Shown: positions 595-22,309, numbered from the stretch's first letter. The stretch is 28,619 nucleotides of DNA from a bacterium (GCA_965233585.1 CBDDTI010000322.1:1-28619), one strand, 5' to 3'. The notes: a model not told the origin generated them from the sequence alone. A program made the numbers and translations.

Positions 595-1584
595 GCACCT
601 TGAGGACAGGGTTGGAGTGGAGCGCTTCCCACCCCATTTTCCCATGAACTTCAAGAATTTTCCCACTGGGAAACTTCATTTTTCCCAAACTTCAACTTTC
701 CCCGAGTGCCGTATGGAAACTTGACTTTTCCTGCAGGAGCAGCGGGATGTTCTGACCAACCGTGCCGAATGCTTGATTGACCTCGTCACTGAATGACTTT
801 CTGACTGGGGCAAAAAAGCGGTGTGGTGCTCTGAAGTCAATGTTGCATAAGAAGTGTCCTGACAAAGCCGAAGACAGTGATGCCATGTTCACCCTTTTTG
901 ATTTGCCGGTGTTGCGTTGCCAAATGAACAGGGCATCAACACATTCAGAGACCTTCGTAGGATGGAAAAAGGGTGTTTGGCTTCGCTGTGGACAGTTTTT
1001 GAACCGATACATTGAGACAACCAGCACTTGACAAGGATGACAAACACAACCATACACAACGAGAACTCTTCATTTTATGTTTTTGGTCTCCCATTTTCAA
1101 AGCGCAACTCAATATCCCACAAGCCCATCTGAGGTCATGAAGTCATCATCGGCTCTGATTTCCAAAAGGATCCAAAAGGTGTGTTGCGAGAACTCTGAAG
1201 GGTAGAAGTGGAGAAGGATTGAGATAGAACTTTTAAGTTTGAAGTGGAGATGGGGGTTTCACACAAAGACCACATATACAATGTTATAGCTATTTTACAA
1301 TACGTAATTTCACACAACAATACATCTATTTACCTATACCATGATGATATACATGCATCCAGTCGCTTGCATTCACCCTGTCAGAAAACGTGCGGAGGAG
1401 CGGAGTGTTGACCTCCTCGGGGATTCAAAAAGGTTATGTGTTATTTGTTTGGAGGAAATTGGATTTTCTCTTGTCTTGGTTTTACATAGATACAAAAGTT
1501 AGTTTTTTGGGCGGGGAACGAAGGGGTTGTGATAGAAAGCACACCGTCCATCTTAAAATATAAGGTCACACATGATTATCCACT

Positions 1585-1790
1585 ATGAATAGCATACAAG
1601 ACGACTGGGATGCTAAAGGCTCAAGTCTGATGAGGACAAAACGACAATTTATGACGACTTGACAACAAAAAACATTTTTCAACAAGTGTCCTGAGACCAT
1701 TTTTTTTTAATCTCAAATACGCTACATTCAGGACACGTGTTATTTTAAGCCAAAACGACTACCCGAAGCAAAAAGCAAAGACGCTTAAAG
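1585..1790 (+). pseudogene. Probable degraded first viral ORF
   Basis: ATG at 1585 lies 33 nt after a CTTAAAA motif (1552), the spacing seen at other terminal genes. Reads MNSIQDDWDAK, then a shifted frame SDEDKTTIYDDLTTKNIFQQ. Confidence 0.3.
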
Positions 1791-1818
1791 AAATGTCGCC
1801 TTATATAAAAAGTAAATT

Positions 1819-2148
1819 ATGCCCGGCTATATGGTAATTGATGGAAAGAAGCAAAAAATGGACGAAGACGTCTTTGACCAAATGGTTGAAGCACTCCACC
1901 AATCCAACAACCCCCACAACCCACCAGCCCAAGCAACCACACGATGGAAACCTGACGGAAATTATGACAAGAAACCATTAGACCCAGACTATTTTTCAAA
2001 ATGCTATCAGAAGAAACTATCAAAACCCTTCCAATGCCCAGACTGCGGACAGGTAATCAGTAGTAAATCCAATCTTTCAAAACACCGTCAAACCAAAAGA
2101 TGTATGAGCAAACAAACCCACTGTTTAAATCCGAAACCTTCTCAATAA
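1819..2148 (+). CDS. Small C2H2-type zinc-finger protein
   Basis: FQCPDCGQVISSKSNLSKHRQTKRC; CTTAAAGAAA motif 35 nt upstream; hairpin at the stop codon. Confidence 0.75.
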   Translation: MPGYMVIDGKKQKMDEDVFDQMVEALHQSNNPHNPPAQATTRWKPDGNYDKKPLDPDYFSKCYQKKLSKPFQCPDCGQVISSKSNLSKHRQTKRCMSKQTHCLNPKPSQ

Positions 2149-2175
2149 CAACGATTCTGTTTATTGAGAACGTTT
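2134..2175. terminator. Hairpin between convergent genes
   Basis: TTCTCAATAA (2139-2148) pairs perfectly with TTATTGAGAA (2161-2170); extendable with one mismatch. Confidence 0.6.
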
Positions 2176-2652
2176 TATTCACTATTCATTTTTGTCTGTT
2201 TGACACAGTTTTTTGACCCTTGATGTATTGGAACATAGTATTGAGACATTACATGCTTACAAAAAGGACATTCCATTTTTTCAAGGTGTTTCTCTAATAT
2301 CTTTTCTTTATTTTTGTAGTAGTATTCCCGCGCCACCTCCTTTCTCTCTTCTTCCATCCTATGTGGAATGACATTATTGACACAATCAATGCTTTTGATG
2401 TAGTGCCCTTCTCGTCTCAATAGTTCTTCCTTACAATTGCAGGGATAGTTTTCAATCAACTCAATCTTACAATCTTCAATACCAAACTCATCAAATATTT
2501 CAATCGCTGACACATTCTTATTTGTTTTTCCTGTTTTGTAAGAACTGTATTTTGCTCTATGCCTCTCAATTCTTTTACTCAAACTTTCGCAAGTGCTCCC
2601 TACATAGGCTTTGTTGTGTCCAGTGTTATTTTCTAAATCTTTCCGTTTTCAT
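2175..2652 (-). pseudogene. GIY-YIG endonuclease with C-terminal zinc-finger-like motif, 5' end disrupted
   Basis: Upstream of the tracked ORF the minus strand reads YENGKI*KIT, then after a frameshift GHNKAYVGSTCESLSKR (GIY-YIG signature). Also IELIENYPC, ELLRREGHYI and CPFC. Confidence 0.85.
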
Positions 2653-2831
2653 ACCTATATTTACACCTATATTTACCATAAGTTGCCATTTCTTTAAACC
2701 ATTTTTCCCAAATTCAATTCTGGTGTTCTCACGTTGGACTTCAACCCAGAACCCAATGACCCAAAAAGTGAACGAGAACCCACAATTGCTTAAAAAAATA
2801 ACTATATATTACTTCATATTTTAAGGAGAAA

Positions 2832-5800: not shown

Positions 5801-6724
5801 TTACAGTTTTACCTTCAAAAGGGTATGAAAATCAAACAAGTTCATCGTGGGGTGAAGTTCAAACAGAGATGTTGGTTGAAACCTTGGATAGATTTTAACA
5901 CTGAAAAAAGAAAAGTAGCGAAGAGCGACTTTGAGAAGGATATGTTCAAATTGATGAACAACGCCGTTTATGGCAAAACGATGGAGAATGTCAGAAACCA
6001 CATTGACTTTGAATTAGTATCAACGCAGGAGAGGATACAAAAATGTATCAACAATCCTAACTACAAAGGATGTCATATTATAAATGAAGAACTGGCAGGA
6101 GTGGAAAAAACAAAAACTGTATTGAAGTTGGATAAACCTATCTATTTGGGAATGTTAATTTTAGACCTTTCAAAGGTTCATATGTATTCTTTCTACTATG
6201 ATGTCTTAAAAGCAAGGTATAAGGATGATGTAAGACTGATATATACTGACACCGACAGTTATGTTATACAAACTTTCACCGAAGACATCTATGAAGATTG
6301 GAAAGGAATAAAGGATTATATGGACTTCAGCGGTTATGATAAGAACCACCCTTGCTATGATGCCACTAATAAAAAAGTCCTTGGCAAGTTCAAGGACGAG
6401 ATGGATGGAAAAATCATCACAAACTTCATTGCTTTACGTCCTAAAATGTATTGTCTAAAAGTCTTCAACGAACAGAAAGCAGAAAAGAAAGCAAAGGGTG
6501 TTCCAAAACTGAAAGTCAAAAGGGATTTAGATATGAAAGACTATGAGGCAACACTCCACGAACACATACCAAAGAATGTAAATTTCAATGCCATCAGAAG
6601 TAAGAACCACCAAATCTACAGTATAAACCAAAGCAAGGTCGGTTTAACATCTTATGACAACAAAAGGTATTGGTTCAACGATACTGACAGTCTGCCCTAT
6701 GGGCACTACTCATTATCCAATTAA
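2832..6724 (+). pseudogene. polB: Protein-primed family B DNA polymerase (pPolB), ~1300 codons, fragmented
   Basis: ExoI ADFEC, ExoII HNLKNYD, KGVYPYDY, ExoIII YLRTDV, motif A YLDANNLYG, motif B KLMNNAVYGK, motif C YTDTDS. In-frame stops at 3432 and 3768; frameshifts at ~4813, ~4845 and ~5416. Confidence 0.95.
4554..4652 (+). other. Endonuclease VII-like (His-Me finger) domain within the pPolB exonuclease region
   Basis: CFICGKDFKEGDKVRDHCHFTGKYRGCAHDDCN fits the CxxC...DHCH...RG...CN pattern. Confidence 0.85.
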
Positions 6725-6754
6725 TAATATTATTTAACAATAATATTATCAATT
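6719..6754. terminator. AT-rich hairpin between convergent polB and small ORF
   Basis: AATTAATAATATTATT-taac-AATAATATTATCAATT: 16-bp stem with one mismatch. Confidence 0.65.
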
Positions 6755-6756
6755 GT

Positions 6757-6963
6757 TCATATCAAACTCCAGTTACAGAGTTGTAGTTTCGGTAGTTGAT
6801 ATATCAGTTTGTTTTGTTTCTCCTTTTCCAGTTTCTCCACTCTTCCCACCAACTCTTTTACGCTCTTGATGAGTAAAACATCTGTTCGGGTCTTTTCGTC
6901 TTCGTCTATCTTTTTGATTTGTTCAAGGTAGTCGTTTTCAACACTGCTGTTTGAATTGCCCAT
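6757..6963 (-). CDS. Small coiled-coil protein with N-myristoylation consensus
   Basis: Starts MGNSNSS (MGxxxS); SVKELVGRVEKLEKE is heptad-like; TCTA 16 nt upstream. Confidence 0.6.
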   Translation of the reverse strand: MGNSNSSVENDYLEQIKKIDEDEKTRTDVLLIKSVKELVGRVEKLEKEKQNKLIYQLPKLQLCNWSLI

Positions 6964-6986: not shown

Positions 6987-9254
6987 TTAATTCTTTGATT
7001 TGGATTTCGCCTTTGCTTTAGGCTTGACAAAATCTTTGATGAAGTTTTCAACTTCAAATAAGCGGGTTTCTAAATGCTCAACTTTGTTTTTCAAGTCTTC
7101 ATTTTCTTTGATTATTTCTCTGACTGCTCCCCAAGTGATACTTCCCATTTTAATATAACTTAATTTCTTAATACCATCAACTTCAACAAGTATATTTTCA
7201 ACTTTTTCTGGTATATTTTCTTCTACCTCCTCTGCTATAAAACCTATATGACTTTTAGTTATTCCCATTTCTTTTTCTTCTTTCATTTTGAAAGTATGAG
7301 GTTTAATGCTATTTACTATTTTTGTAAAATTGAAATTTGCTTCTTCAATATCATATTTCTTATCTTTTTGTGATGTATCTACAAGGTCTCCCTCTAATGT
7401 ATAAGGTGCTGGAACAGAAACTTTTGATGGTGTAATAAAAAGTCTTATACTGCTATTAGCATAAAATCTTATGTCCCCGTTAGGGTCTTCATTGATTAAC
7501 TTGAAATGATTAACACCTGCGGTATTTTCATTAACTATATAACTATTCTTGCTTGTTTCTTTATGAAAATATGCCTTTTTGTCTTGATTGACATATACGT
7601 CTTTTGAAAAATTAACATCTTCAGTTGCTTTTCTGTATCTCATATATTCTACTAAACCGTCATCTGTTGTATTACTACCTTGAAAAACCATATCAGCACC
7701 ATAATTTCTATTGTAAAAATAATCTCCATAAATATATTGAGATGACAACGCCCTACCTGTTGAAACATTAATAATACTGTTAGCACCATCTAATGTAAAG
7801 AAATTTACACCACCTCTTTTAAAGACTACATCGGTAGGTGTGGCACTATCAATTACATCAAATTTAGCACTTTCAGCAAGTAATGATAAACCCGTATTTA
7901 CTTCTACATTACCGTTTCTAAAATACATAAAGTCTATTGTGTTCCTTCTAAATTTAACATCAGCATTACCTATACTATCATAAGTGTTTGCTTTAGCACC
8001 TTTTGTTAGTTCCACTGCTTGTAGCGTTCCTTCAAACTTCATATATGCAACATCGCCTCTTTTGAAGACTAAATCAACATCAGTAGCGTTTTTTGTATTG
8101 ATGACATCGGTTTGTAATTCAGTATGGCACACGACATCAACATTAAAATATGCCTGTGTTAATGACAATTGAAATTTTAAGTGTTGAGGAAACGGACGAC
8201 CACCAACATAAAACCGATGTACTCCACCAGAAGCAAAAATACAATAATCATAATCAGGATTACCACTTCCTATATTGATAGAACGGATATAACCTTTACC
8301 AGTTCCTAAAACAATTGAACCTCCTAATGGAAATTCTATGGTTGAATTATAATAAGCAGAACCATTAACCGTTAAGTCAAAACTTCCAAATTGAACACCG
8401 CCACATAAAACTAAATCGCCTTCTATTGTTTGTAATGTTTCACCTGTATATTTTACTAAATTAGTGTCATCAACACCACCACCTCCAATAGCGGGTGATG
8501 TTGTTTTATGAAATGTGATTAAATCATTTGCTAATGTCATAACTAAATTAGAAGCAGTAGCGGGGTCGCCTACATAAAAGTCAATTTGACCTGTCTGTTC
8601 TTTCATTACAAAATTCAAAAAGTTTCCAGCGTTTAAAGTTTCATTTATATAACTGTCGGTATGTTGAAAAAGTAATTTACTATTCAATGGTATATCTAAA
8701 CTTGATGCTAATGCCAATGGTTTTCCTAAAACTAAACCACCGTTAGTATCGTAATCATAATCATATTCCAAATAAATAGCATTGTTATGTTTAAACAATA
8801 TGTTAGACAGACTGTTTTTACTATCAAAGTCATTGCTCTTCAAAACGCCTGTTATTTCGGGATTGCTGACATTCAATTTATTGTTTAATAAACCATCGGT
8901 TTCAGTCTGTGTATAGTAAGGGGTAAATAAACCGTCGGTTTCAACTCTTGTATAGTAAGGGGTGAATAAACCATCGGTTTCAACTTTTGTATAGTAAGGG
9001 GTGAATAAACCATCGGTCTCAACTTTTGTGTAATAACTTGTGAATAAACCATCAACTTCACCACTATCATAATAAGGGGTGAAAAGATTGTTTGTTTCCG
9101 CTTTTGTATAGTAATTGGTTAAATCAACACTACCACCTCCTCCACCACCACTTCCTGCGATGTCAAGGATGTTCCTTAACTGTCCGTTATTTGGGTCTAT
9201 TGTTCTAAACTCGTATGCCTCCACGCTCCTATTTATATTATAATAATTTGCCAT
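6987..9254 (-). CDS. Putative virion fibre with C-terminal peptidase S74-like intramolecular chaperone (755 aa)
   Basis: Gly linkers, 13-aa tandem repeats and a beta-rich repetitive middle. C-terminus has SQKDKKYDI...HIGFIAEEVEE...LSY followed by a coiled coil. Open frame. Confidence 0.75.
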   Translation of the reverse strand: MANYYNINRSVEAYEFRTIDPNNGQLRNILDIAGSGGGGGGSVDLTNYYTKAETNNLFTPYYDSGEVDGLFTSYYTKVETDGLFTPYYTKVETDGLFTPYYTRVETDGLFTPYYTQTETDGLLNNKLNVSNPEITGVLKSNDFDSKNSLSNILFKHNNAIYLEYDYDYDTNGGLVLGKPLALASSLDIPLNSKLLFQHTDSYINETLNAGNFLNFVMKEQTGQIDFYVGDPATASNLVMTLANDLITFHKTTSPAIGGGGVDDTNLVKYTGETLQTIEGDLVLCGGVQFGSFDLTVNGSAYYNSTIEFPLGGSIVLGTGKGYIRSINIGSGNPDYDYCIFASGGVHRFYVGGRPFPQHLKFQLSLTQAYFNVDVVCHTELQTDVINTKNATDVDLVFKRGDVAYMKFEGTLQAVELTKGAKANTYDSIGNADVKFRRNTIDFMYFRNGNVEVNTGLSLLAESAKFDVIDSATPTDVVFKRGGVNFFTLDGANSIINVSTGRALSSQYIYGDYFYNRNYGADMVFQGSNTTDDGLVEYMRYRKATEDVNFSKDVYVNQDKKAYFHKETSKNSYIVNENTAGVNHFKLINEDPNGDIRFYANSSIRLFITPSKVSVPAPYTLEGDLVDTSQKDKKYDIEEANFNFTKIVNSIKPHTFKMKEEKEMGITKSHIGFIAEEVEENIPEKVENILVEVDGIKKLSYIKMGSITWGAVREIIKENEDLKNKVEHLETRLFEVENFIKDFVKPKAKAKSKSKN
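8880..9113 (-). repeat. Six 39-bp coding tandem repeats (YYTKVETDGLFTP-like)
   Basis: Visible in both DNA and translation. Confidence 0.9.
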
Positions 9255-9286
9255 ATATTATTAGATGATAAAATAATTTTGTAGCA

Positions 9287-10035
9287 TCATTCCACTTGAA
9301 TTCTTTGATTGAGGTTTTTGTAAAACATTTTCTTCTTGTCGCTTTCCATCAAATCTATGTATAAAAAACCGTGCCTGTCATTCGTGGCAACTCGGTATAT
9401 CTTGTCTAAAGTTTTCTTGTCATACAACCCGCTCAATTCTTCCAAAATGGCATCTAAATCTTTTTGATTACGAAGCCTGAAGATGAAAAGTTGGGTGGCA
9501 TTCTTCCTAACGACTGGCGATATTTGTGTGTAGGATTGTGATGTGATAAAAGTTGAGATATACCAATGCCTACCTTTGGTGAAGAGTTTGATTAACTCCT
9601 TGTTCTTCCTGACAACCTTTTCGTTGTCAGCCCAGTCGTCTATGATGATACAGATGTTGTATAGGTGTTTGTAATCCTTCTCCTTCATATACTTTATTAT
9701 TCCTTCCTGCGTGTCTATCACGTTCTTCAAGTCCTTCTCCTCAAAGGTGTCAAAGTAAATGGGGTCTTCATCCGTGTGTTTGATGTCCATTTCTTTGTCA
9801 ATGTATTTTTTCACAACCGTCCAGTTGTCATCAATGAAGATGGTTGGCGAAAAAATGTAGATTTTCTCAAAGCAACCCTTGTAGATGTCCAACACCAAGT
9901 TTGTCAAAGCAACCGTTTTACCCGTTCCCGACGGAGCGTTCAGTAAAATCCTTGCTGGAAGACAAACCATATACCCGTAGGATGACTGCTTACAATTATA
10001 TATTCTTTATGTTTGTAAGGCTTTATATTTATCAT
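9287..10035 (-). pseudogene. A32-like (FtsK/HerA superfamily) genome-packaging ATPase with 5' frameshift
   Basis: Walker A APSGTGKT, Walker B IIIDD, KGRH, TSQ. Likely ATG at 10035 (TCTA 12 nt upstream) gives MINIKPYKHKEY; an extra AT near 9997-10003 shifts it off NCKQSSYGYMVCLP. Confidence 0.88.
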
Positions 10036-10493: not shown

Positions 10494-10515
10494 AATTTTC
10501 TCAAATATAAAATAG

Positions 10516-10947: not shown

Positions 10948-11063
10948 AAAGTTTCTCACAAAATGGTGAAAAGAGTAGATTTTGCGTGAAAGCAAATTGA
11001 TAAATAAATATCTAAATAAATATATATCTAAATAAATAATTATATATATAAATATATAATAGT

Positions 11064-11426: not shown

Positions 11427-11456
11427 TTTCATATTTTAAATATATAGTTTTATAAT

Positions 11457-12089: not shown

Positions 12090-12884
12090 ACAATTCACAT
12101 TGTTCAAATCAACAACATTACCATAACTATTGACCAATTTGAAGTGTAGTGTTCTCAACACTCTATTTGAAACATTGATGTAATCAACACTGATGATTTC
12201 ATTGTCATAGATGACTGAACCGAAGGGGGCATTAATCGGGATTTTCTTAACGATGTTGTAAGCACCCGTAGAACCTAATTGTTTAGCGTCGCTCAATTCA
12301 CTACAAGTAAGGTATAAATTTCTCAACGCTAATAATGTCAAATACCCGCTTTTCCAATCTGGATAGTTCAACGATGAGGTGTAGTTTCCTAAAACCTGAT
12401 TGATGGATTTTAAGTTATTTCTGTCATAAGATGTTCCCGTCCATTGGATGGTGTTATACTCCATCTCATAGTCGGTCATTATCTTGAACGAAAAATCCAC
12501 ATAGTTTAAAGTGATGGTTATTTTGTTGGTGTCATAGTCGTAAGATACACTGAAATAATCGTTGTTTGCTTGAAACCCGTTTGTTGCTTCGTTCATCTTT
12601 GTTTGAAGGTTTGATGCCAATGTAGCACCTACATAGGAAGCACTCAACAGTTCAATTATAACATCCGTAGTGTTTGAAAAATCCGTCAGTCTTAAGTAAA
12701 GGTTGCTGTTCAACCCCGCTTAGACTGGATAAATGGAATTCGGTATGGTGATTTCGTGGATGTAGAGTTTGGTGTCGTTCCCGCATTCTTGACTTTCGGG
12801 TAAATAGATTTCAAAATCACTGCTACTGTTACAGTTCTGGGTTCGGTGGTGGCTGTCTATGTATATCTTTTTAAATCTACTCAT
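12057..12884 (-). pseudogene. Minor capsid (penton) protein with one in-frame stop
   Basis: ATG 12884 gives MSRFKKIYIDSHHRT...SDFEIYLP...IPNSIYPV, then TAA (12720-12722), then in-frame AGLNSNL. C-terminus LHFKLVNSYGNVVDLNNVNCSFSLTF. Both ends match the PLV/NCLDV penton pattern. Confidence 0.8.
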
Positions 12885-12936
12885 TTATTATGATATAATA
12901 ACTTTAGAAATTATATTTTTCTATACATTATTATAT

Positions 12937-13638
12937 ATGCTTCAAAAAAGGTTGATGGATGATATGAAAACACAGGGACGACTACAAAGAATAAACCCCT
13001 TTGAAGAGATTGACGGTAAAGAATACAACAAAAAACACAACAACAAACAAAAGGAATTGTTGGAGAAATTCAGTAAGGAGATACAACGGGGAAACAAATA
13101 CTTGGAGGAGTTCAGCAACATCAACGACGAGACCGGACTAAAGAGGGCATACAATAACAGAACAAATTTAGGACTATACCACCACCCAGAGAATAAAACG
13201 CTTTACATAGCGGGGACGAAAGATTTTCCGCGAGACATTTTGGACGACACACTCATTCCTTTTCATATGGTTCATAGGTCAAAGCGGTATAAGACCGCAA
13301 ACGACTTCATCAGAAACAACATTGATAATGTTGATACAATTGTCAGTCATTCCTTGGGTTCAGCAACAACGATGAAACTGAACCAAGACTATAACAAAAG
13401 ATTTACCACCAGAACCTATGGAACACCAACCGTAAGTTTTAATGACAACACTGACAGTAAGAACACGAGGTTCAGGGCAGTAGGCGACCCAGTCAGTATG
13501 TTTGACAGAGGCGTGGATATAACAGTCAATAAGAACAGTTATAATCCTTTATACAATCACGGCTTTCACGCCGTCCATTTTGGAGATATGGGAAAGTCAG
13601 AAAAGAATGTGGCAGAACCAATCAACAAGATAATGTGA
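12937..13638 (+). CDS. Class-3 lipase-like alpha/beta hydrolase
   Basis: LYIAGT, nucleophile elbow SHSLG, TYGTP, GDPVS, late His. Start reassigned to 12937 (TCTA 13 nt upstream). Confidence 0.85.
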   Translation: MLQKRLMDDMKTQGRLQRINPFEEIDGKEYNKKHNNKQKELLEKFSKEIQRGNKYLEEFSNINDETGLKRAYNNRTNLGLYHHPENKTLYIAGTKDFPRDILDDTLIPFHMVHRSKRYKTANDFIRNNIDNVDTIVSHSLGSATTMKLNQDYNKRFTTRTYGTPTVSFNDNTDSKNTRFRAVGDPVSMFDRGVDITVNKNSYNPLYNHGFHAVHFGDMGKSEKNVAEPINKIM

Positions 13639-13663
13639 TTTTACTTTATATAAGTCATATTAT

Positions 13664-13894: not shown

Positions 13895-13944
13895 TTTAAT
13901 ATAACCTAATCATCAAAAATTTTCTGTATAGAATATATACAAGT

Positions 13945-15345
13945 ATGGAAGCATTAGAAATTACAGATGTTCTCAATGAAAATGTCCTTCGGTATAGACT
14001 AAAAGGTGGAGCGTCCTACATTAGAGACAAACGTATCAAAACATTCTACCCTTCTTCGGTCTCTACTTACTCATCCAACTCAAACAGTGTCATCCGTTTT
14101 AATCTAACTGGTGGAGCAAATGAATGGATAAATCTGCGAAGTCTTTTGATAGGTTTTACCCTCATCAATGCCGACAATGACGGAACAAAAGAGTTGAGAC
14201 CTGCCTATAAACCATCCTCATTTTTTCAAAGAATGCGAGTGATGGCGGGTTCAAATGTTATTGCTGAAATTCCTGACTTAAACCGTTATGAAGCAATGAT
14301 GGATATTTTACAAGATGACGGTTCAAGAAACTATACTGACAATTTAGGTTTTGGTGAGACCTTCTATAATGAAGGAAATAGATTTTTGACATATACGCAG
14401 TTGGCAACGAACCCAGGTTCAAACACAGTCCAGAATGTCATTGACCAAGCGAAACCTGACAATTTCGGAGGGTTTAAAAACAAAAAGACCGTTTATTACC
14501 GACCTTCTTGTCCCTTCTTCAATGTATCAAACTTCATTCCTTTATCATACTGTCCGATTGTCATTGAACTAACTTTGGTCAGTGATGCTAATGAACCCCT
14601 CATTAATTTAAGTGGTGATTTTACCACAACGAATACTTCGTTCTTATGGAACATAGAGCAACCCATCATCACCTGTGATATTCACCGACTTGATGATGGT
14701 TTATTTGCGGAGTATGCTGAAATTTTGGAAAAGCAATCTTTACCTATAACCTTCAACAGTGTTTCCGTCCAAACCCAAACAACAAGTAGAAGCGCCGACA
14801 TCTTCACGACAATAGTTAGAAATGTCAGTAAAGCAGACAACATATTCATATCTTTCTATTCAAATTTGGGTTATAAGGGCGGTTTCCAAGAAGTGTTGAA
14901 ACCTCATAACCTTCTTTATCATCCCCTTTCGTGGGAAAGCGGAACATCAATTGCTCAAAGATACTATGAAAATATTGATTTATCCTTTCAGTTAAGTATT
15001 GGTAATACTGTCATACCCGAAATGCCAACGATGGGGGTTGCTGACAACTACAAGCATCTTCAAGAAACACGAAACAATCACGTTTCAATCAAACCTCATA
15101 TGTATAGGACGAATTCCTTTTTAGCGGGGTTCAACCTCAAGAAACTCAACAGTGCCAATTACACTGGACTGAATTTGAAGAACAATTCAAATATGGTTGT
15201 CCGTGTTAAGCCATTGTATGGAACAGACCTATATACAACAGACAACGGGACTGATACTGGACTGATGCCTGACAACATGTATATCGTTATTGAACACGAA
15301 TGTATCTTGGAGATAAAAGCCCAATCTGTCATTTTCTATGACTAA
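13945..15345 (+). CDS. Putative double-jelly-roll major capsid protein (466 aa)
   Basis: Size, beta-rich composition, PLV-MCP-like N-terminus (FYPS...IRFNL...WINLRSLLIGFTL, FFQRMRV, IPLSYCPIVIELTL), and context with penton and ATPase. Open frame. Confidence 0.8.
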   Translation: MEALEITDVLNENVLRYRLKGGASYIRDKRIKTFYPSSVSTYSSNSNSVIRFNLTGGANEWINLRSLLIGFTLINADNDGTKELRPAYKPSSFFQRMRVMAGSNVIAEIPDLNRYEAMMDILQDDGSRNYTDNLGFGETFYNEGNRFLTYTQLATNPGSNTVQNVIDQAKPDNFGGFKNKKTVYYRPSCPFFNVSNFIPLSYCPIVIELTLVSDANEPLINLSGDFTTTNTSFLWNIEQPIITCDIHRLDDGLFAEYAEILEKQSLPITFNSVSVQTQTTSRSADIFTTIVRNVSKADNIFISFYSNLGYKGGFQEVLKPHNLLYHPLSWESGTSIAQRYYENIDLSFQLSIGNTVIPEMPTMGVADNYKHLQETRNNHVSIKPHMYRTNSFLAGFNLKKLNSANYTGLNLKNNSNMVVRVKPLYGTDLYTTDNGTDTGLMPDNMYIVIEHECILEIKAQSVIFYD

Positions 15346-15357
15346 AAATGATAGTGG

Positions 15358-15396
15358 ATAATTAATAAAATTATAATGAATAATCTTATTAATTAT
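15358..15396. terminator. AT-rich hairpin between convergent MCP and 431-aa gene
   Basis: ATAATTAATAAAATTAT-aatga-ATAATCTTATTAATTAT: 17-bp stem with one mismatch. Confidence 0.65.
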
Positions 15397-16688
15397 TTTG
15401 ATTTTAATTTTGGATAGATGATTGACTTGTAAAGTTCCTTCGCTTCCTTTAGATGCTGTTTCTTATCCTCTCCCTTGCTTGATTTCCATTTACCATATAC
15501 CTCTTGAAACCTTTGATAGTCTCCTGTGTCTATGCTTTTGCTGTTGTTCATCTCTTCAAACTTCTCTCTTATCACTTGTATTCCTACCTTGCTTGGCGAT
15601 ATTGCTTTGTTCATTGTTGGTTTCCTGACTGGTGCTTTTGATGAAGATGACGCCCCTGTTTCTTCCTGTGCTGTCTCTGCTTCATCTACATTGGGTGTCT
15701 TGTTGTCTTTGGGGATGTTGATTGTTGCTCCTAATGCTTGTGGTTGGGGTTGCTTTCCTCTTACTCTTCTTGCTTTGGGTGGTTTGGTGGTTGTGGATGG
15801 GTCTTCATGAAATTCTCTCTTCTCCTGCGTTGGCGGTTTTGGTTTCTGCCTCTTTGCTTTGGACTGTCTCACGCTTAAGGGCTTCCTTTTTTCTGCTGTT
15901 GGTATTGCTGTTGTATCCGTTGGTTCGTTGACATCGGGCACTACATCCACGTTCATCTTTGATTTTTCCTCCTTTAACTTCTTTTGGTGATTTACCTTTT
16001 TGACTTGTTTGTTGATTAGTTTTTGTGTTGGTTTTATCTTGGACGGTTTCTCTTCCTCGTCTTCGTCGGGTATGATGGCGTCTGTCAGTTTTGATGCTAT
16101 TAGTCCTCCTATTGACCCTCCCTTTGCTGTTCCTCCTGCTGTGGCGACTGCTTTGATGACTGGTTTGGATGATTTAAGGAATTTCTTTAAGATGCTTCTA
16201 CTGCTTGAAGGCGGTTCTTCGTCTTCTTGTATCCCTGCCGATGCCGTTGCTCCAACGGCGTCGTATGCCCCTTTGTTTGCCATATAGTGGTCTTGTGAAT
16301 GACTTAAGTTTGCTTGTTCTGCTACTCTCCTTTCGTTCTCTTCCCTCAACTCTGCCTCTCTGTCAAAGGACATTTCGAAGTCGCTGATGGCGTCGTCCCT
16401 CAAGTCTGTCATACCTTCAAAGTCAAGGTTGGGTGTTTCTTCTTCCTTCCTTGCGGTCGCTTCCTCTGCCATCTGTTTGAAGTTCATTTGCTGTAAGTCT
16501 GCTGGGTGGATGTTGTTTGTGTTCAGTGCTTGACCCTGCGGACTTTCGTGAAAATACCAAGCGTTCCTATCAAAGATTTTTCTGATGTCATTGGTTTTGA
16601 ACTTTTCCCTGTCTATTTCCTTGATGAGTTCTGCGTAAGTGGGTATTCGTGTCAATCCCTGTTTTGCGTTGATTACTTCTGCTGTCAT
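15393..16688 (-). CDS. Hypothetical 431-aa low-complexity protein, possible virion core/membrane-active protein
   Basis: Acidic N-half, Gly/Ala hydrophobic segment (VIKAVATAGGTAKGGSIGGLIASKL), Lys/Arg/Pro-rich C-half. Function is inference. Confidence 0.7.
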   Translation of the reverse strand: MTAEVINAKQGLTRIPTYAELIKEIDREKFKTNDIRKIFDRNAWYFHESPQGQALNTNNIHPADLQQMNFKQMAEEATARKEEETPNLDFEGMTDLRDDAISDFEMSFDREAELREENERRVAEQANLSHSQDHYMANKGAYDAVGATASAGIQEDEEPPSSSRSILKKFLKSSKPVIKAVATAGGTAKGGSIGGLIASKLTDAIIPDEDEEEKPSKIKPTQKLINKQVKKVNHQKKLKEEKSKMNVDVVPDVNEPTDTTAIPTAEKRKPLSVRQSKAKRQKPKPPTQEKREFHEDPSTTTKPPKARRVRGKQPQPQALGATINIPKDNKTPNVDEAETAQEETGASSSSKAPVRKPTMNKAISPSKVGIQVIREKFEEMNNSKSIDTGDYQRFQEVYGKWKSSKGEDKKQHLKEAKELYKSIIYPKLKSK

Positions 16689-16718
16689 TGCTATATATTA
16701 ATAGTTGAGATTTTTATA

Positions 16719-17168
16719 TTAATCTTGTGTATCGCCTCTCAACCACTGTTTATACTCATCAATTCTCTGTTTCATATTCTGGACGTTCGCCCCGTAATCT
16801 TCCAATCTGTGATTTTTCCTCACCTCCCTCAACCTTGTCATTTCGTTCTGTAGCATCTCATTCTCTTCCTTCATCCTCTGCTTTACTTGTAAGACTTTGT
16901 AATCGTGCTCGGTGTTGTGATATTCAAGAAGGCGCTTTAGGTAAAGATGATGGTTGTGAGTTGGCATCCTTGCCGTGTTGCTGTCGTTGTGGTAGTAGTG
17001 GTCATAACTACTATACACTTTTTTTCTTCTGTCTGGCATTTCGGGCGTTCCGCTCCGGTAGTTGGCACTTTTGTTTGAATGGACGGTTTGTCTTCTGTTG
17101 ATGTCCTTGCGGACGTTTTCGTAGATGCCTGTTTTGTTGAGTTCTATTTTCTGTTCCTTGATGTTCAT
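16719..17168 (-). CDS. Hypothetical basic coiled-coil protein
   Basis: Open ORF in a co-oriented run; AT-rich leader. Confidence 0.65.
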   Translation of the reverse strand: MNIKEQKIELNKTGIYENVRKDINRRQTVHSNKSANYRSGTPEMPDRRKKVYSSYDHYYHNDSNTARMPTHNHHLYLKRLLEYHNTEHDYKVLQVKQRMKEENEMLQNEMTRLREVRKNHRLEDYGANVQNMKQRIDEYKQWLRGDTQD

Positions 17169-17184
17169 TTTTATATATAATACT

Positions 17185-17529
17185 TTACAAACTTTTTGAT
17201 GCTAAAGATTTCAAGTTCTCTCTCGTCGCTTTGTTCTTTTCCTCTTTGGCTTTGTTGTAGGTGTCTCTGGCGGACATCGCACTTTGTAGTTCTTCCTTTA
17301 TTTGTTTTACAAGGTCGCTTTTGAATGCTTCTGGGTCAAAAGGTGGTTTCGCCCTTGACGGTCTTACCCTTTTGGGCTTTGGGGCTGGTTGCGGTTTCTC
17401 TTCAACGGATGGTTCAATTATTTCTTCTGGTTTCTCCTCTTCTTTCGGTGCTTCTTCCTGTGTTGGCTCTGGTATTGTTTCTTCCTTGGGTTCTTCATTA
17501 TCAATCTCTTTTACGACTACCTCTGTCAT
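17185..17529 (-). CDS. Hypothetical Glu/Pro-rich then basic protein
   Basis: Open ORF; TCTA 12 nt upstream. Confidence 0.7.
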   Translation of the reverse strand: MTEVVVKEIDNEEPKEETIPEPTQEEAPKEEEKPEEIIEPSVEEKPQPAPKPKRVRPSRAKPPFDPEAFKSDLVKQIKEELQSAMSARDTYNKAKEEKNKATRENLKSLASKSL

Positions 17530-17552
17530 ATATTAATATTATAGATAATTTT

Positions 17553-18493
17553 TTATACTTTCAAAATCTCGTGCCTCAAATACGGTTTGTTCAATCCTTC
17601 CAGTTTGAAGGTTCTGTTTCCGACATCATCGTATTCTATCTTGACGATTTTGTAGGATTGATTGCTCCACTTTGAGTTATACTCCTTCCTCTCGGTGTAG
17701 TTGTCTTTTTTCTTCTCAAAGACCTTGACCATATCATTCACTTTGACCTCTGGATATTTGCGAGTGTTCTTTTCCCTCCTTGTCAAATTTACCCTGACGT
17801 CCATATGGTTTTTGTCGTCGTGGGCATCCTTGGGTTTCATTTTGGTGGATGAATGGACGGTGTCGTTGTATTTATCTAACGCTTTGGACAACATCACAGT
17901 CCAACTGCCCCGATTAAACCTGACCCTGTCGTGTATCATATTTTTCATTGTCCTTATGAAACGTTCCACAACATTAGCGTGTGTTAGGGTGACGACGTGA
18001 GTGATGCCTTCTTTCTCAAAAAAATCTTTTACACCCGCTTGGAAGGCACGGTCATTATCGCTATAAACGGACATCGGAAAACCCATTTTGTTGAAACTAT
18101 CTTTCATCGCCGATAATGTGATTGGTCCGGATTTTCTTTCATAGGGACGACGTTTGCCAACTTGCTGAAGATGTCAATGACCACCAACCCATATCTCGGT
18201 TCGTCGTTCTTGATGGGAATTTTTGTCTCTGGTTCTTTAGTTAGGGGTTTCATATCCATTATGTCAATTTGATGCTCAAACCTTGCGAATGGTGCGGTGT
18301 AGGAGTTTGAACCCCTGTATTTTCTAATCTGTTTGTTGGGCTGTTTCCTCATAAAGTTTTCCACATCCACCCTGTTGATGGTCTGGTCTTGTTCCTTGGC
18401 TTTCTTGAGGGTCTCATTGATTGAACCGAAGCCCGTTTCAAGATTGTAATAGACATTGCTTATGATGTCATCTCTTGATAGTCTCCTTGCCAT
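17553..18493 (-). pseudogene. Retroviral-type (rve, DDE) integrase split by a 1-nt deletion
   Basis: QIDIMDM (D), VIDIFSK, YSDN (D), ANVVERFIRTMK (E), YNDTVHSST. Adding one base to the run at 18132-18135 restores MKEKSGPITLSAMKDSF. Confidence 0.92.
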
Positions 18494-18539
18494 ATATTAT
18501 AATATTAGATTTTAAAATTATCAGCAATAAAAAAATATA

Positions 18540-18571
18540 CTTAAAGAAAAAACACCTATATATAGTAAGAG
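18540..18571 (+). promoter_or_regulatory. Conserved upstream motif CTTAAAGAAAAAAnnnCTATATATARTAAGAG
   Basis: Near-identical copies at 18540, 19027 and 21457; weaker copies at 1552, 1784, 2789 and 2698 (minus). All lie 33-46 nt before an ATG. Confidence 0.75.
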
Positions 18572-18579
18572 TAAATAAG

Positions 18580-19008: not shown

Positions 19009-19026
19009 ACGAGCCCCCAAAAACTA

Positions 19027-19058
19027 CTTAAAGAAAAAATATCTATATATAGTAAGAG
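19027..19058 (+). promoter_or_regulatory. Second copy of the CTTAAAGAAA motif
   Basis: CTTAAAGAAAAAATATCTATATATAGTAAGAG immediately before ATG 19060. Confidence 0.75.
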
Positions 19059-19670
19059 GATGCTATTTACTTATAAAAACTGTGGATGTTGTAAGAAAGA
19101 AATGACTAACCTAAAGGTTTTATTGAACAATATTTTTCCCGCTGGAATTTGTGATGAGATATGTCATTACAACCTTCACTGTGAAAAATGTAAAGACTTA
19201 AACGATAGGGAGCGTAGATACATAGATTTCAATTATCATTTTGACTATTTTAATGATAAAAAACTGACAAGAGTTGAAAAGATAATCTATTTCTTTAAAA
19301 CAAGGATGGAGAAATCACCTATTTATTTATCCAACACGAACCGAACAAACACTCGGCAAATGAAAAGAGAAATTTATGTTTTAATGGATACATTCAAACT
19401 CAAGCAAGAATTCAAACACGACAAACTGTTCTTAATGGCGATTAAGTCTTTTGTGAAAAGGGAGTGGAAAACTACCTATCACTTCCTTAAAAACTTTCAC
19501 GACCTTACATATATGAAGTATTGTAAGAACAAACGGGAGTGTTGGTTTCCTCAAAACGATTGGACTTATACATTCAGAAATAGGGAGTTTAAGGTAAAAG
19601 ACATTTTGGAAAGGAGGGCTGATTATTTTAGGATTTTTTTTTGATCAGGTTTAGGAATTATTTTTGGATT

Positions 19671-20030
19671 CCTGCTTCTCTGCTTTTCCTGCTTTTCCTG
19701 CTTCTCTGCTTTCCTGCTTTTCCTGCTTTTCCTGCTTCTCCTGCTTTTCCTGCTTCTCTGCTTTTTTGCTTCTCCTGCTTCTCTGCTTCTCTGCTTTTCT
19801 GCTTTTTTGCTTTTCTGCTTCTCCTGCTTCTCTGCTTCTCTGCTTTTCTGCTTTTTTGCTTTTCTGTTTTTCCTGTTTCTTTGCTTCTCTGCTTTTCCTG
19901 CTTTTCCTGCTTCTCTGCTTTTCTGCTTTTCCTGCTTCTTTGCCTTTCTGCTGTTTTGCTTTTGTGCGTTTCCTGTTTCTTTGCTTCTCTGCTTTTTTGC
20001 TTCTCTGCTTTTTTTTGCTTTGCCTGCTTT
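19671..20030. repeat. Degenerate (CTGCTTTT/CTGCTTCT)n pyrimidine-rich repeat
   Basis: Directly visible; source of spurious ORFs. Confidence 0.95.
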
Positions 20031-20280
20031 AAATACTTGATTTTCATGTAAGATGCATTTTGCACAGTATTTACATCCCTGAGTATCACATGACCAACCT
20101 TCTCTTGAAAACTAGCAACGTAACATGTGAGAAGAGGTGCTTGCATTCTGCTTTGGGGGGAGGCGCTGCGCCCTCCCCCAATCCCCCCCTCCCGCTTTTT
20201 TTAATTTAAACTTAAACCCAAGTTACATTAGTTGGTTTTTGCGAACTAACCTTCTCTGGAAAGCTGACAGGATTACATGT

Positions 20281-20922
<642 letters not shown>

Positions 20923-20991
20923 GCGCCCTCCCTCAATCCCCCCCACCCGCTTTTTATCTAATCCCAAGCTTCCGCATCTGTAAATATTTGG

Positions 20992-21240
20992 GTGAACATG
21001 CTCACATGTAGAACATCCCATGCAAAATGGAAGGTGAACATGCCAAAATGTGGCAAATACCATACAAAATGGAAGGTGAACATGCCCACATGTAGGAAAT
21101 CCCATGCAAAATGGAAGGTGAACATGCCAAAATTTGGCAAATACCATACAAAATGGAAGGTGAACATGCCCACATGTAGTAAATCCCATGCAAAATGGAA
21201 GGTGAACATGCCCAAATGTGGCAAATACCATGCAAAATGA
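20992..21240. repeat. 42-bp minisatellite, ~6 copies, alternating A/B variants
   Basis: Unit CATRCAAAATGGAAGGTGAACATGCC... Confidence 0.92.
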
Positions 21241-21456
21241 CAAATTCAAGTTCCAAACCGTTGCAAACACTAGGCAAATGGTACCAGCCAAGGAATCCAA
21301 AAAAAATTCCCAAACCTGCTCAAAAAAAAATCCTAAAACTATTTCACACCCTTTTGGAAATATTTTTGCGTGAATACACTGAAGAACTTTTCAATGGTTA
21401 TGAAAAATATTTTAATGTAGAAGAAATAAAAGAGTATCTACAAAAAGTGGTAAATA

Positions 21457-21488
21457 CTTAAAGAAAAAATAACTATATATAATAAGAG
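21457..21488 (+). promoter_or_regulatory. Third copy of the CTTAAAGAAA motif
   Basis: CTTAAAGAAAAAATAACTATATATAATAAGAG before ATG 21492. Confidence 0.75.
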
Positions 21489-21491
21489 AAA

Positions 21492-21956
21492 ATGAGTAGA
21501 GCAAAAATTGAGGTTATAGATATAGGTAATATCGGTTTATATGCTGACTTTGGTAGTGAAAGCGAGGACGATGACTGGGAAAGAAAAGCAATAGAAAAAG
21601 AAGATGAAGAGATTAGAGACTTTGTAAGGTGTCATCCCTTACCATCTCGTGAAGACTTTGATTTTTGGAAATCTGTCCTTGATAGATTTAAGGAAAGTAA
21701 TGTAGAACGGTTTAAGATATGGAAACAAAAAGAACCTGACATCATCAAACGAATGTATGAAAACCTAACTAATAAAGATATAATCATACAATGTGGAAAA
21801 GAATTCAATAAAAGAGGTGGTTATTACGCTATGGTTATTAATATAATTCTTTTATCAATAGCGATGGATGAACTAAACGATACAAACAAACCGTGCTTAA
21901 CACAAATGAGAGTAATTGAAAACTGGTGGGATGGAATAGGAAAGTGGAAAGCATAA
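21492..21956 (+). CDS. Hypothetical viral protein, last gene of the element
   Basis: Open 154-aa ORF with upstream motif and downstream hairpin; ends WWDGIGKWKA. Confidence 0.75.
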   Translation: MSRAKIEVIDIGNIGLYADFGSESEDDDWERKAIEKEDEEIRDFVRCHPLPSREDFDFWKSVLDRFKESNVERFKIWKQKEPDIIKRMYENLTNKDIIIQCGKEFNKRGGYYAMVINIILLSIAMDELNDTNKPCLTQMRVIENWWDGIGKWKA

Positions 21957-21959
21957 AAT

Positions 21960-22000
21960 ATTAATTCATAATATCTTAACCAAACATATTATGAAGTAAT
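21960..22000. terminator. AT-rich hairpin after the last viral gene
   Basis: ATTAATTCATAATAT...ATATTATGAAGTAAT: 15-bp stem with one mismatch. Confidence 0.65.
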
Positions 22001-22309
22001 CACCCGCCCAAACACAAACACAAAACCCCAACAGTCTAAACAATTATCCCCCTCATCTTAAACCAAACCATCAAGTGAAAGTTAGGGGTAAAATAGTCCC
22101 AAAACCCCCACCACATAAAACATCAAAGATAAGGAAGAAACATTGAACAATAACATAAAAACCATAACAACCAACAATAAACGCTGGGATGTCCTAGCAT
22201 CCCCCTTTTACCATTTTTTTTATGGGACCCTCATCATGACAGCATCAGGAAGACCTGGGAAATATGGCATTTTCATGGCAATTTGAAAGATGTTTCAAAG
22301 GGAATATGG

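Follow-up and report, generated by a model that had tools for sequence, protein, structure and literature searches.

A 28,619-bp stretch of DNA filed under a bacterium (GCA_965233585.1, CBDDTI010000322.1:1-28619), hereafter the window, carries virus-like genes next to DNA of another kind. What is this element, in whose genome does it reside, and whose machinery transcribes it? The window is one whole contig (C322) of a chimeric 12-Mb "bacterial" bin, with the element and Symbiodiniaceae-like host DNA side by side on it. It is very probably a copy of a polinton-like virus (PLV, Preplasmiviricota) integrated in the nuclear DNA of a Symbiodiniaceae-type dinoflagellate.

Borders and Copies of the Element

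Viral genes span about 1.8-22.2 kb of the window. The right border given in the preliminary description (22,230) was placed correctly and lies at 22219-22226. The left one (1420) was wrong, as sister contig C581, 99.4% identical to window positions 1-24063, extends about 2.2 kb farther and shows the element continuing leftward to an inverted terminus. This left end lies beyond the edge of the contig and is missing from the window. Element lengths are about 24.4 kb for C581 (2275 to about 26725) and about 21.7 kb for C657 (12388-34048). Both copies end in imperfect inverted repeats only about 30 nt long, beyond which similarity is patchy up to about 90 nt. The target duplication is 5 bp (CCCAT) in C581, and C657 shows only GGG. 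C657 holds a second, diverged copy, 85-90% identical, in a different flank. The G+C content is 43.6-45.0% in the three flanks versus 36.4% in the element core. The outer parts of the window are:

1..1707, + strand: left segment, element and not host flank, with host-like G+C content of 44.6%
2-547, + strand: 3' end of a 524-aa ORF, present in full in C581
1680-1707, + strand: shortened copy of the terminal sequence in direct orientation
22137..22226, - strand: right terminal inverted repeat, AAAAAAAATGGTAAAAGGGGGATGCTAGGACA..., host junction at about 22226
22227..28619, no strand: host flank, 43.6% G+C, simple repeats, Symbiodiniaceae-like carboxylesterase pieces over about 23.9-25.0 kb

Host and Assembly Context

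The contig is mis-binned into a bacterial MAG, which mixes bacterial, dinoflagellate-like, and metazoan-type histone contigs; another of its contigs bears a TTTAGGG telomere. Several megabases of eukaryotic repeats are included in what a reference collection lists as a "prokaryotic" species genome. The flank carboxylesterase has relatives with 96-98% identity on mRNA-length contigs; among named relatives, Effrenium voratum (Symbiodiniaceae) comes first at 73%, followed by an entry labelled 'Skav' at 68%. These relatives, together with the G+C content of flank versus core, agree with the dinoflagellate host proposed earlier. The sequencing runs containing the stretch, from 11 studies, are labelled coral metagenome or carry coded labels. 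In six metatranscriptome runs (three studies), 41-49% of the words sampled from the morphogenesis block were found, versus 50-55% in DNA runs.

Gene Content and Decay

A central morphogenesis block (fibre, A32 ATPase, penton candidate, major capsid protein) is followed by the integrase, and the arms carry pPolB, C2H2 zinc-finger, GIY-YIG, and small Cys-rich genes. A Pfam search (E ≤ 0.01) assigned families to six of the 21 ORFs, one of them a weak DUF6571, and eight ORFs were rescanned at E ≤ 5. The genes and the nested insertion are:

1819..2148, + strand: C2H2 zinc-finger protein, 109 aa (Pfam zf-C2H2, E 1.3e-5)
2175..2648, - strand: GIY-YIG endonuclease-like gene (PF01541, 1.5e-4), in a 170-aa form in C581
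2832..6724, + strand: pPolB, with N-terminal domain of about 430 aa and Endonuclease_7-like insert (insert E 1.2e-5)
6987..9254, - strand: fibre-like protein, 755 aa, with C-terminal Peptidase_S74 chaperone domain (Pfam 2.5e-9)
9287..9970, - strand: A32/FtsK-type packaging ATPase (Pox_A32 4.2e-11)
10516..11426, + strand: pair of short conserved ORFs, 143 and 120 aa
11457..12089, + strand: C5 cytosine DNA methyltransferase-like gene (Pfam 1.6e-5)
12057..12650, - strand: penton (minor capsid) candidate
12859..13638, + strand: GxSxG-motif ORF, putative "lipase"
13945..15345, + strand: major capsid protein (MCP), 466 aa, double jelly-roll (predicted fold)
15393..17529, - strand: three charged low-complexity ORFs, 431, 149, and 114 aa (ORF calls)
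17553..18493, - strand: probable retroviral-type DDE integrase, here as two ORFs (18104-18493 and 17553-18107)
18580-19008, + strand: Cys-rich ORF, 142 aa, class A motif upstream
19060-19644, + strand: Cys-rich ORF, 194 aa, class A motif upstream, 3' end cut by the transposon
19597..21367, no strand: nested non-autonomous transposon with 77-nt inverted ends, TTTTGGAAA target duplication, and internal satellite
21492-21956, + strand: last gene, ORF of 154 aa, class A motif upstream

The MCP matched no Pfam family at E ≤ 0.01, the Sputnik and mavirus capsid families included. Its AF2 model (pLDDT 78, pTM 0.83) is a double jelly-roll, with PBCV-1 Vp54 (E 9e-16) and the Sputnik capsid (1e-13) among its Foldseek matches and a top BFVD match at 5e-23, which is in line with the PLV-type capsid expected from the preliminary description. 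The gene is unbroken in all three bin copies, which are 97-99% identical. Its relatives, many of which are full-length (466 aa), include one cluster of 412 members and one weak relative in IMG/VR (29% identity over 104 residues). The penton candidate has 501 relatives, mostly of 275-290 aa. Its model (pLDDT 74, pTM 0.54) had a best fold match at 2.6e-5 to a protein with no named function, and named minor capsid proteins followed at E 0.03-0.16. The ATPase of C657 has a longer N-terminus (248-aa form; Pox_A32 1.9e-11).

The ORF called a "lipase" earlier stays putative as such: it has a GxSxG pentapeptide and no Pfam match at E ≤ 5. As had been stated, neither an RNA polymerase nor a protease matched: the Pfam search of the 21 ORFs (E ≤ 0.01) gave no RNA polymerase family, and no protease family, adenain-like cysteine protease included, came up in these or in the eight ORFs rescanned at E ≤ 5, with the unnamed ORFs remaining possible carriers.

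The pPolB has at least 7,982 relatives with E ≤ 1e-3 among 8,000 scored candidates, typically about 1,250 aa long. Relatives at about 60% identity carry PF03175, and the translation shows Exo and YxDTDS-type motifs. Its reading frame in the window is interrupted by in-frame stops (TAA at 3432, TGA at 3768) and by frame changes at about 4801-4847 and about 5408-5418. The gene is interrupted in all three bin copies, by stops and frame changes in C322 and C581 and by an insertion of about 310 bp with a TATGGCA repeat at its flanks in C657. The integrase is whole (313 aa) in C581 and C657, and its split in the window stems from an A run that differs in length by one base. Profile matches of the integrase are weak (retroviral integrase cores E 0.05, rve_3 0.039), and its D..D..E pattern was seen by eye in the translation. 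Homologues of pPolB were found on 51 contigs of the bin and those of the integrase on 45. The nested 1.7-kb transposon, a member of a host repeat family, truncates the 3' end of the 194-aa ORF in the window and is missing from C657.

The window copy is therefore partly decayed and unable to replicate by itself, because its pPolB is broken, its integrase split, and a transposon nested in it. Of the gene set described earlier as complete, replication, integration, and morphogenesis genes are found, but pPolB and the integrase are not in working order. The search for intact sister copies recovered a whole integrase in C581 and C657 and a whole MCP in all three, but pPolB is interrupted in each of the three. 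Such copies may seem complete at first reading and yet be broken.

Promoter-like Motifs and 3' Hairpins

A motif of the form ACTTAAAGAAA-N7/8-TATATA, designated class A, lies upstream of five arm genes, 9-16 nt from ATG. The corresponding scan pattern TTAAAGAAAWR-N3-8-TATATA (motif A) was found four times in the window versus 0.00 expected, and across the whole 12-Mb bin its 13 strict matches are confined to the three sister contigs. By motif scan, the class A sites are:

1785..1807, + strand: zinc-finger gene
2789..2811, + strand: pPolB, variant CTTAAAAAAATAACTATATAT
18541..18564, + strand: 142-aa Cys-rich ORF
19028..19051, + strand: 194-aa Cys-rich ORF
21458..21481, + strand: 154-aa ORF

Comparison of the sister copies showed that the motif is kept before the same five shared genes in C657 despite 10-15% divergence. 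C155, a distant PLV in the bin (MCP 26% identical by tblastn and 31% in a second comparison), has three formal motif A matches versus 0.52 expected, with a maximum of four in 200 shuffles.

Most central genes have TCTA or TCTN between AT-rich flanks, about 14-25 nt upstream of ATG. The plain count of TCTA in the window equals chance (4 versus 4.07 expected). In the positional test, TCTA precedes 5 of 16 window genes, with P 1.7e-5 when all windows serve as background and 0.03 when they are AT-matched; one of these matches (194-aa ORF) falls within a class A motif. C155 scores 7 of 18 genes (P 5e-7 and 9e-4 against the two backgrounds, respectively). The MCP gene and the 431-aa ORF have an upstream TCTA in C657 and TCTG or TCTC in the window. 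Thus, of the two positional promoter motifs described earlier, class A is strong, but TCTA is a low-information motif with a chance-level count and an AT-matched P of 0.03.

The 3' hairpins noted previously are indeed present, AT-rich and at three of the four ends of gene runs; the other eight junctions tested gave z between -1.2 and +1.1. The hairpins are:

2146-2185, no strand: weak hairpin, z -1.3
6722..6775, no strand: AT-rich palindromic hairpin where the ends of pPolB and a small ORF converge, z -2.43
15343..15400, no strand: AT-rich hairpin where the MCP gene and the 431-aa ORF converge at their ends, z -2.80
21954..22020, + strand: hairpin past the last gene, z -7.06

Hairpins recur at equivalent junctions in C657 and C155; at the site equivalent to 21954..22020, C657 has a hairpin of different sequence. 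Judged from sequence, these signals do look viral more than host-like.

Motif Sharing with a Virophage and Search for a Helper Virus

Both motif classes are common to the window element and IMG/VR contig IMGVR_UViG_3300013126_001297 (L038), an uncultured Sputnik-type virophage. The contig is free, has 13,980 bases, and is rated at 54% completeness. It encodes a Sputnik-type MCP (PF21915, 1e-92) and a V18/19 penton (3e-23), and has a primase-helicase instead of pPolB. The pattern CTTAAAGAAA-N5-9-TATA has five forward matches there and none for the reversed control. ACTTAAAGAAATATTATCTTATATA lies upstream of the primase-helicase and small genes, and TCTA upstream of the penton and other genes. 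No protein similarity between L038 and the element was found by blastp (E 1e-3). The occurrence of this two-motif grammar in a Sputnik-type virophage contig is new here.

The exact motif scan of IMG/VR gave nine matches at eight loci versus four matches at four loci for the reversed pattern. An ATG follows within 25 nt in eight of the nine, and in six an ORF of at least 90 aa is opened. The mimivirid-like contigs L039 and L041 have one exact match each, which, with four control matches against nine, is indistinguishable from chance. The scan of IMG/VR revealed no giant virus with repeated class A motifs, and the giant-virus partner anticipated in the preliminary description was not found there, single matches being not above the reversed control. 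Searches for NCLDV capsid and poly(A) polymerase gave no match in the bin, a weak result, as the same searches were also blank in all control genomes.

Proposed Transcription and Life Cycle

A decayed PLV provirus whose family is read by giant-virus machinery is the best explanation of the locus as a whole, and we give it an even chance. For its transcriptional part, dependence of the family on a giant virus through both motif classes, the motifs and their placement make a plausible case falling slightly short of that. Class A would be an early-type and TCTA a late-type promoter, both recognised by the transcription machinery that a co-infecting giant virus brings in, and the hairpins would mark the 3' ends of transcripts. 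Intact members may lie dormant in the host genome until a helper switches the family on. Replication would be protein-primed, starting at the inverted ends, followed by packaging of the genome by the A32 ATPase and re-integration via the DDE integrase. If giant-virus machinery does read the two motif classes, intact members would be virophage-like.

It is also quite possible, though less probable than helper dependence, that the family is an autonomous PLV or transposon with self-synthesising transposition. Its own early and late promoters would then be used in the nucleus by RNA polymerase II of the host together with element factors (C2H2 and Cys-rich proteins) in an adenovirus-like temporal programme. 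The element encodes its own pPolB and probable DDE integrase, candidate DNA-binding proteins sit under class A motifs, and the family is massively expanded, as counted above for pPolB and integrase. A polymerase, an integrase, possible regulators, and hundreds of copies also fit helper-free transposition. No helper virus was found in the IMG/VR motif scan or the bin searches, and the morphogenesis block occurs in RNA libraries of three studies. If its words there are real RNA from uninfected holobionts, they argue against strict helper dependence; if they are DNA carry-over, they are uninformative. Against autonomy, a TATA box sets the start site about 30 nt downstream, and the class A TATATA, just 9-16 nt from ATG, is too close to act as one. 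Moreover, AT-rich 3' hairpins, here at the ends of gene runs, are a giant-virus trait (the 'hairpin rule' of Mimivirus). The same grammar is used by L038, and cultured Sputnik-type virophages are, to our knowledge, all giant-virus dependent. In dinoflagellates, TTTT and not TATA is reported at the place of the TATA box in the accessible part of PMC9651163.

Improbable is a dead repeat, its motifs and hairpins left over from a virus now extinct, in silenced, decaying DNA without present function. The interrupted pPolB in all three bin copies and the transposons nested in copies fit it, as do the Maverick/Polinton repeats of Breviolum minutum, described in the available text of PMC11071213 as 5-hmU-rich and poorly accessible. 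The unbroken MCP, the many full-length relatives of MCP and pPolB, the motifs retained between copies 10-15% apart, and the morphogenesis block in RNA libraries speak against it. That a free virus genome was misjoined to host DNA in assembly or binning is hardly credible even in so plainly chimeric a bin, given the same virus-host junction on two contigs (99.4% identity), the 5-bp target duplication in C581, the diverged copy C657 in another flank, and the host repeat-family transposon nested within the element.

Returning to giant-virus-dependent transcription, its widest form would have hundreds of PLV proviruses in coral-symbiont dinoflagellates wired to the early and late promoters of an undescribed Symbiodiniaceae giant virus. 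Sputnik-type virophages would exploit the same machinery, and intact members would form an inducible population-level antiviral system in the coral holobiont. Taken together this is rather doubtful, and the antiviral role is one that we only infer. We know of no Symbiodiniaceae giant virus isolated so far. A part in bleaching and coral disease is suspected for viruses that infect coral symbionts. If the grammar belongs to a giant virus, it is a sequence tag for fishing that virus out of coral metagenomes, and if the whole proposal is true, the provirophage-defence idea reaches the most ecologically important dinoflagellates.

Relationship to Known Viruses

The double jelly-roll MCP, the A32/FtsK ATPase, the length within 14-40 kb with inverted ends (C581, C657), and the finding of no adenain-like protease place the element with the PLVs. 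With pPolB and the target duplication in C581, they bear out its earlier description as an endogenous PLV-type element. Polintons/Mavericks share pPolB, and their adenain-like protease was not found. Their rve integrase has a weakly matching candidate in the element, and their long inverted ends and 6-bp duplication stand beside ends of about 30 nt, patchy similarity up to about 90 nt, and the 5-bp CCCAT of C581. A match to the Sputnik/mavirus-type MCP family of virophages (Maveriviricetes/Lavidaviridae) is absent from the element, in contrast to L038.

For other hosts, the general idea of helper transcription has been published before (PMC8547959, PMC10945749, 10.1101/2022.07.28.501842, 10.1101/2025.10.09.676808). 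AT-flanked TCTA is the late promoter of CroV and the mavirus promoter (PMC8547959, PMC5294985, available portions), and only elements with compatible promoters are reported to be reactivated (PMC8547959, PMC10945749). The element resembles mavirus and the Cafeteria EMALEs in pPolB, a probable rve-type integrase, A32-type ATPase, double jelly-roll MCP, integration with inverted ends, and AT-flanked TCTA. It differs in its PLV-like MCP, no cysteine protease found, the additional class A motif on arm genes, and the dinoflagellate host.

PgVV Gezel-14T depends for transcription on Phaeocystis globosa virus and has the helper's early promoter before its replication genes (10.1101/2022.07.28.501842, as far as its text is available). 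A PLV-type capsid, a fibre-like protein, and GIY-YIG genes are common to both. Gezel-14T has early motif AAAATTGA, TVpol, and a tyrosine recombinase, whereas the element has the class A motif, pPolB, and a probable DDE integrase. AAAATTGA is also the early motif reported for mimivirids, and it is not the class A motif. The PLVs of Tetraselmis, endogenous in the alga and replicating upon TetV-2 infection, likewise combine a structural core that is conserved with replication and integration modules that vary (10.1101/2025.10.09.676808, available text). They have another host and helper and form an experimental system, whereas the window is known from its sequence.

Endogenous PLVs of dinoflagellates are already published. 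The Dino group PLVs are integrated, 14-40 kb long, and present in high copy number in Polarella and Symbiodinium (PMC10120064, PMC12166617, available parts). The element is like them in integration, in MCP, integrase, and polymerase genes, and in nested transposons, a likeness seen in gene content. It differs in its motif and hairpin grammar, which does not occur in the available text of PMC10120064, where the word 'promoter' is absent. The same two sources report nested introners in these PLVs and MCP transcripts in some dinoflagellate transcriptomes.

Identity of the element and its host

The window, which is the whole of contig C322, contains a real but decayed and truncated Polinton-like virus (PLV) provirus in Symbiodiniaceae-like DNA. 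Endogenous PLVs of dinoflagellates are already known, and this element adds one more member. High-copy endogenous PLV/eupolintovirus elements of Polarella and Symbiodinium, with nested introners and silenced chromatin, are described in published accounts (PMC10120064, PMC12166617, PMC11071213), and the supplements of published work may already list this PLV family.

The contig comes from bin G000, a 12.0-Mb assembly of 747 contigs filed as a 'prokaryote' genome. The bin is chimeric. About 3–4 Mb are densely coding contigs, the three longest among them, and about 6 Mb are contigs with less than 30% coverage by ORFs of at least 150 aa. Only a bacterial copy of COX1 was found in the bin, and one contig terminates in a TTTAGGG telomere. 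Histone genes form H1-H3-H4-H2B-H2A tandem arrays, metazoan-type quintets with a 6.6-kb period, and their H2A groups with the H2A of arthropods and molluscs. With completeness rated at 92% and contamination at 2%, this 'prokaryote' reference genome contains several Mb of eukaryotic DNA, dinoflagellate-like contigs included; the contigs contrasted were C747, C746, and C745 versus C7, C488, C13, and C322.

A probable dinoflagellate had been named as the host in the preliminary description, and this is supported by a gene in the flank, by G+C content, and by the origin of the sequencing runs. The flank carries a carboxylesterase gene fragmented in differing frames at about 23.9–25.0 kb. For a 63-aa piece, relatives with 96–98% identity are present on mRNA-length contigs, and the best named relatives of the gene are from Effrenium voratum (Symbiodiniaceae, 73%) and an entry labelled 'Skav' (68%), presumably Fugacium kawagutii. 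Three host flanks have a G+C content of 43.6–45.0% versus 36.4% in the element core. The sequencing runs containing the stretch, from 11 studies, carry coral metagenome labels or are coded. The coral animal itself had been entertained as host from the G+C content of the bin (about 39%), its metazoan-type histone arrays, and a coral polintovirus paper (PMC11131425), but was rejected for this contig in view of the Symbiodiniaceae match of the flank gene. The dinoflagellate spliced-leader core gave no match in the 12-Mb bin with up to two mismatches, which is weak evidence, because leader genes need not sit in the bin.

Borders, sister copies, and damage

Position 1420, proposed earlier as the left border, is no border. 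Sister contig C581 matches window positions 1–24063 with 99.4% identity (52 mismatches and 22 gap openings); the match includes 1.8 kb of the right flank, and C581 and C322 therefore represent a single insertion, whether they are alleles, derive from different strains, or arose by recent duplication. Beyond window position 1, C581 extends for a further 2.2 kb or so, up to the terminal sequence in inverted orientation, so the window begins inside the element. Both element ends in C581 are flanked by CCCAT. The terminal sequence recurs in shortened form at 1680–1707, oriented as the right end and 4 kb inside the left end of C581; this copy is missing from C657, the second sister contig.

The leftmost 4 kb or so of the element have host-like G+C content and encode a 524-aa ORF without family, for which a weak ESM Atlas match (0.84) to P-loop ATPases is the only lead. 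The stretch adjoining the left end (window 1–1700; C581 22700–26725; C657 31245–34048) has G+C content of 45–48%. At the left-arm position C657 has different DNA, with an unrelated 418-aa ORF versus the 524-aa ORF of the other lineage, and this stretch possibly serves as a slot for variable cargo. The C657 copy (12388–34048) is 85–90% identical to the window, and window block 9286–15345, from the ATPase gene to the major capsid protein (MCP) gene, is inverted there (17600–23722). Both breakpoints of the inversion are intergenic; a 3' hairpin coincides with that at 15345.

The gene set was previously considered complete, but the window copy is decayed and truncated, with the left end missing. 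The gene of the protein-primed DNA polymerase B (pPolB, 2832–6724) carries two in-frame stop codons (3432 and 3768), and its reading frame changes near 4801–4847 and near 5408–5418; the polymerase gene is interrupted in all three copies of the bin (C322, C581, and C657). The integrase gene is split in the window by a one-base difference from C581 within an A run, for which an assembly error could be another cause; it is intact, with 313 aa, in both C581 and C657. A nested transposon is also present:

19597–21367: nested transposon of 1.77 kb with 77-nt inverted ends and a TTTTGGAAA duplication

The Cys-rich 194-aa ORF is truncated by this transposon, which C657 lacks. Many contigs carry its satellite as well. 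In C657, an insertion of roughly 310 bp (about 29100–29410), with a TATGGCA repeat on both sides, interrupts pPolB, and several other ORFs are broken. The two insertions are different small elements, both with target duplications, and may be introner-type elements such as those in dinoflagellate proviruses (PMC12166617).

A second PLV lineage is represented in the bin by C155 (2800–34100) and C424. Its MCP is 26–31% identical to that of the window, and its fibre 76%. It encodes a 1,349-aa helicase protein in place of pPolB and four GIY-YIG genes, and it contains an inserted copia-type retrotransposon (about 25.3–33 kb).

Gene content and expression

Pfam identified 6 of the 21 ORFs in the window:

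C2H2 finger
Endonuclease_7-like insert in the polymerase
A32 ATPase
Fibre with Peptidase_S74 chaperone
C5 methyltransferase
One weak DUF

The 466-aa ORF is the capsid protein, with a predicted double jelly-roll fold. Its profile gave no hits against PDB sequences, the single sequence had no match in IMG/VR, and the profile found one weak, uninformative locus there (L006). The pPolB is not directly recognised by Pfam and had no phmmer hits in PDB. Of 8,000 scored candidates, 7,982 are its relatives, most of them around 1,250 aa in length, and PF03175 is present in those with approximately 60% identity. The polymerase pieces and the "200-aa ORF" upstream of them therefore make up a single gene of some 1,290 codons. 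Integrase families are matched weakly by the integrase. The penton candidate has 501 relatives and no clear assignment in the fold search, and a GxSxG motif is the sole basis of the putative "lipase" ORF. Among the window ORFs, neither RNA polymerase nor protease families were detected, which bears out the earlier statement that an RNA polymerase is lacking.

Homologues of pPolB are present on 51 contigs of the bin and those of the integrase on 45. Contigs C73, C315, C493, and C606 have the replication and integration genes in common with the element (45–60% identity), but not the capsid, which suggests module exchange.

Of the words sampled from window positions 9287–16688, 41–49% were present in six metatranscriptome runs (three studies) and 50–55% in DNA runs; this RNA signal is indistinguishable from DNA carry-over.

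Promoter-like motifs and hairpins

Two promoter-like motifs, class A before arm genes and class B before central genes, were recognized. Class A, ACTTAAAGAAA-N7/8-TATATA, is real. Four strict matches are in the window versus 0.00 expected, and all 13 in the 12-Mb bin are within the PLV family of the window. A looser form has five matches in the window and four in C657, where the reversed pattern gave none in either and shuffles about 0.3. In both C322 and C657 the motif precedes the zinc-finger gene, pPolB, and three small arm genes, with only 9–16 nt between TATATA and ATG. C155, with MCP identity to the window of 26% in tblastn and 31% in another comparison, has three formal matches versus 0.52 expected, and further variants were seen by eye. 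In dinoflagellates, TTTT reportedly takes the role of TATA (PMC9651163).

Class B is an AT-flanked TCTA or TCTN about 14–25 nt before ATG of most central genes. It is low in information, and the plain count of AAAWTCTMA is not above chance. In the positional test, TCTA preceded 5 of 16 window genes (P 0.03 versus AT-matched windows), one of these matches falling within a class A motif, and 7 of 18 genes in C155 (P 9e-4).

Clear hairpins are located at the ends of three gene runs (z −2.4, −2.8, and −7.1), a fourth end has a weak one (z −1.3), and none was found at the other eight window junctions tested. Ranking of 50-nt windows by MFE was dropped as a hairpin measure, being dominated by GC content. 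AT-rich palindromes are also located at equivalent junctions of C657 and C155, and several share ...ATAATATTATCAAT. A half-conserved palindrome, TTGATAATATTAT...ATAATATTATCAA, is common to hairpins at different gene-run ends:

Window, 6724–6749
C657, 17568–17602
C657, about 26475–26510
C155, 21087–21124

This palindrome may constitute a specific signal for 3' ends rather than just any hairpin. The earlier observation of promoter motifs and 3' hairpins holds.

Possible relationship to virophages and giant viruses

An exact class A scan of IMG/VR gave nine matches in eight loci versus four in four loci for the reversed pattern, so the number of matches alone means little. ATG follows within 25 nt in eight of the nine, and six stand at the start of an ORF of 90 aa or longer. 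Four loci look PLV-like (A32 ATPase, S74 fibre, or D5-like helicase); two of them are nearly identical, leaving three distinct viruses. Two are mimivirid-like (poly(A) polymerase, myosin) with one exact match each, indistinguishable from chance. NCLDV capsid and poly(A) polymerase families had no match in the bin, a weak result, as the controls had none either.

AT-flanked TCTA is reported as the CroV late promoter and the mavirus promoter (PMC8547959, PMC5294985). PgVV carries the early motif of its helper, AAAATTGA (10.1101/2022.07.28.501842), unlike the class A motif of the window element. The word 'promoter' is absent from PMC10120064, PMC11131425, and PMC12721341, and nothing relevant combining the class A core with 'virophage' or 'giant virus' was found in the searchable literature. 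Tentatively, we infer that this PLV family may depend on a giant virus.

Locus L038 (IMGVR_UViG_3300013126_001297; 13,980 bases) contains five class A matches, all of them forward, against zero for the control pattern. It is a Sputnik-type virophage, with MCP (1e-92), V18/19 penton, and primase-helicase. Class A precedes its replication gene and small genes, and TCTA its penton gene and others, the same split between gene sets as in the window element. The observation of promoters and hairpins gains weight because this grammar is common to the virophage. Across this uncultured genome (1–13980), ACTTAAAGAAATATTATCTTATATA, a motif for which no report was found in searchable papers, precedes at least four genes, and TCTA precedes capsid-side genes.
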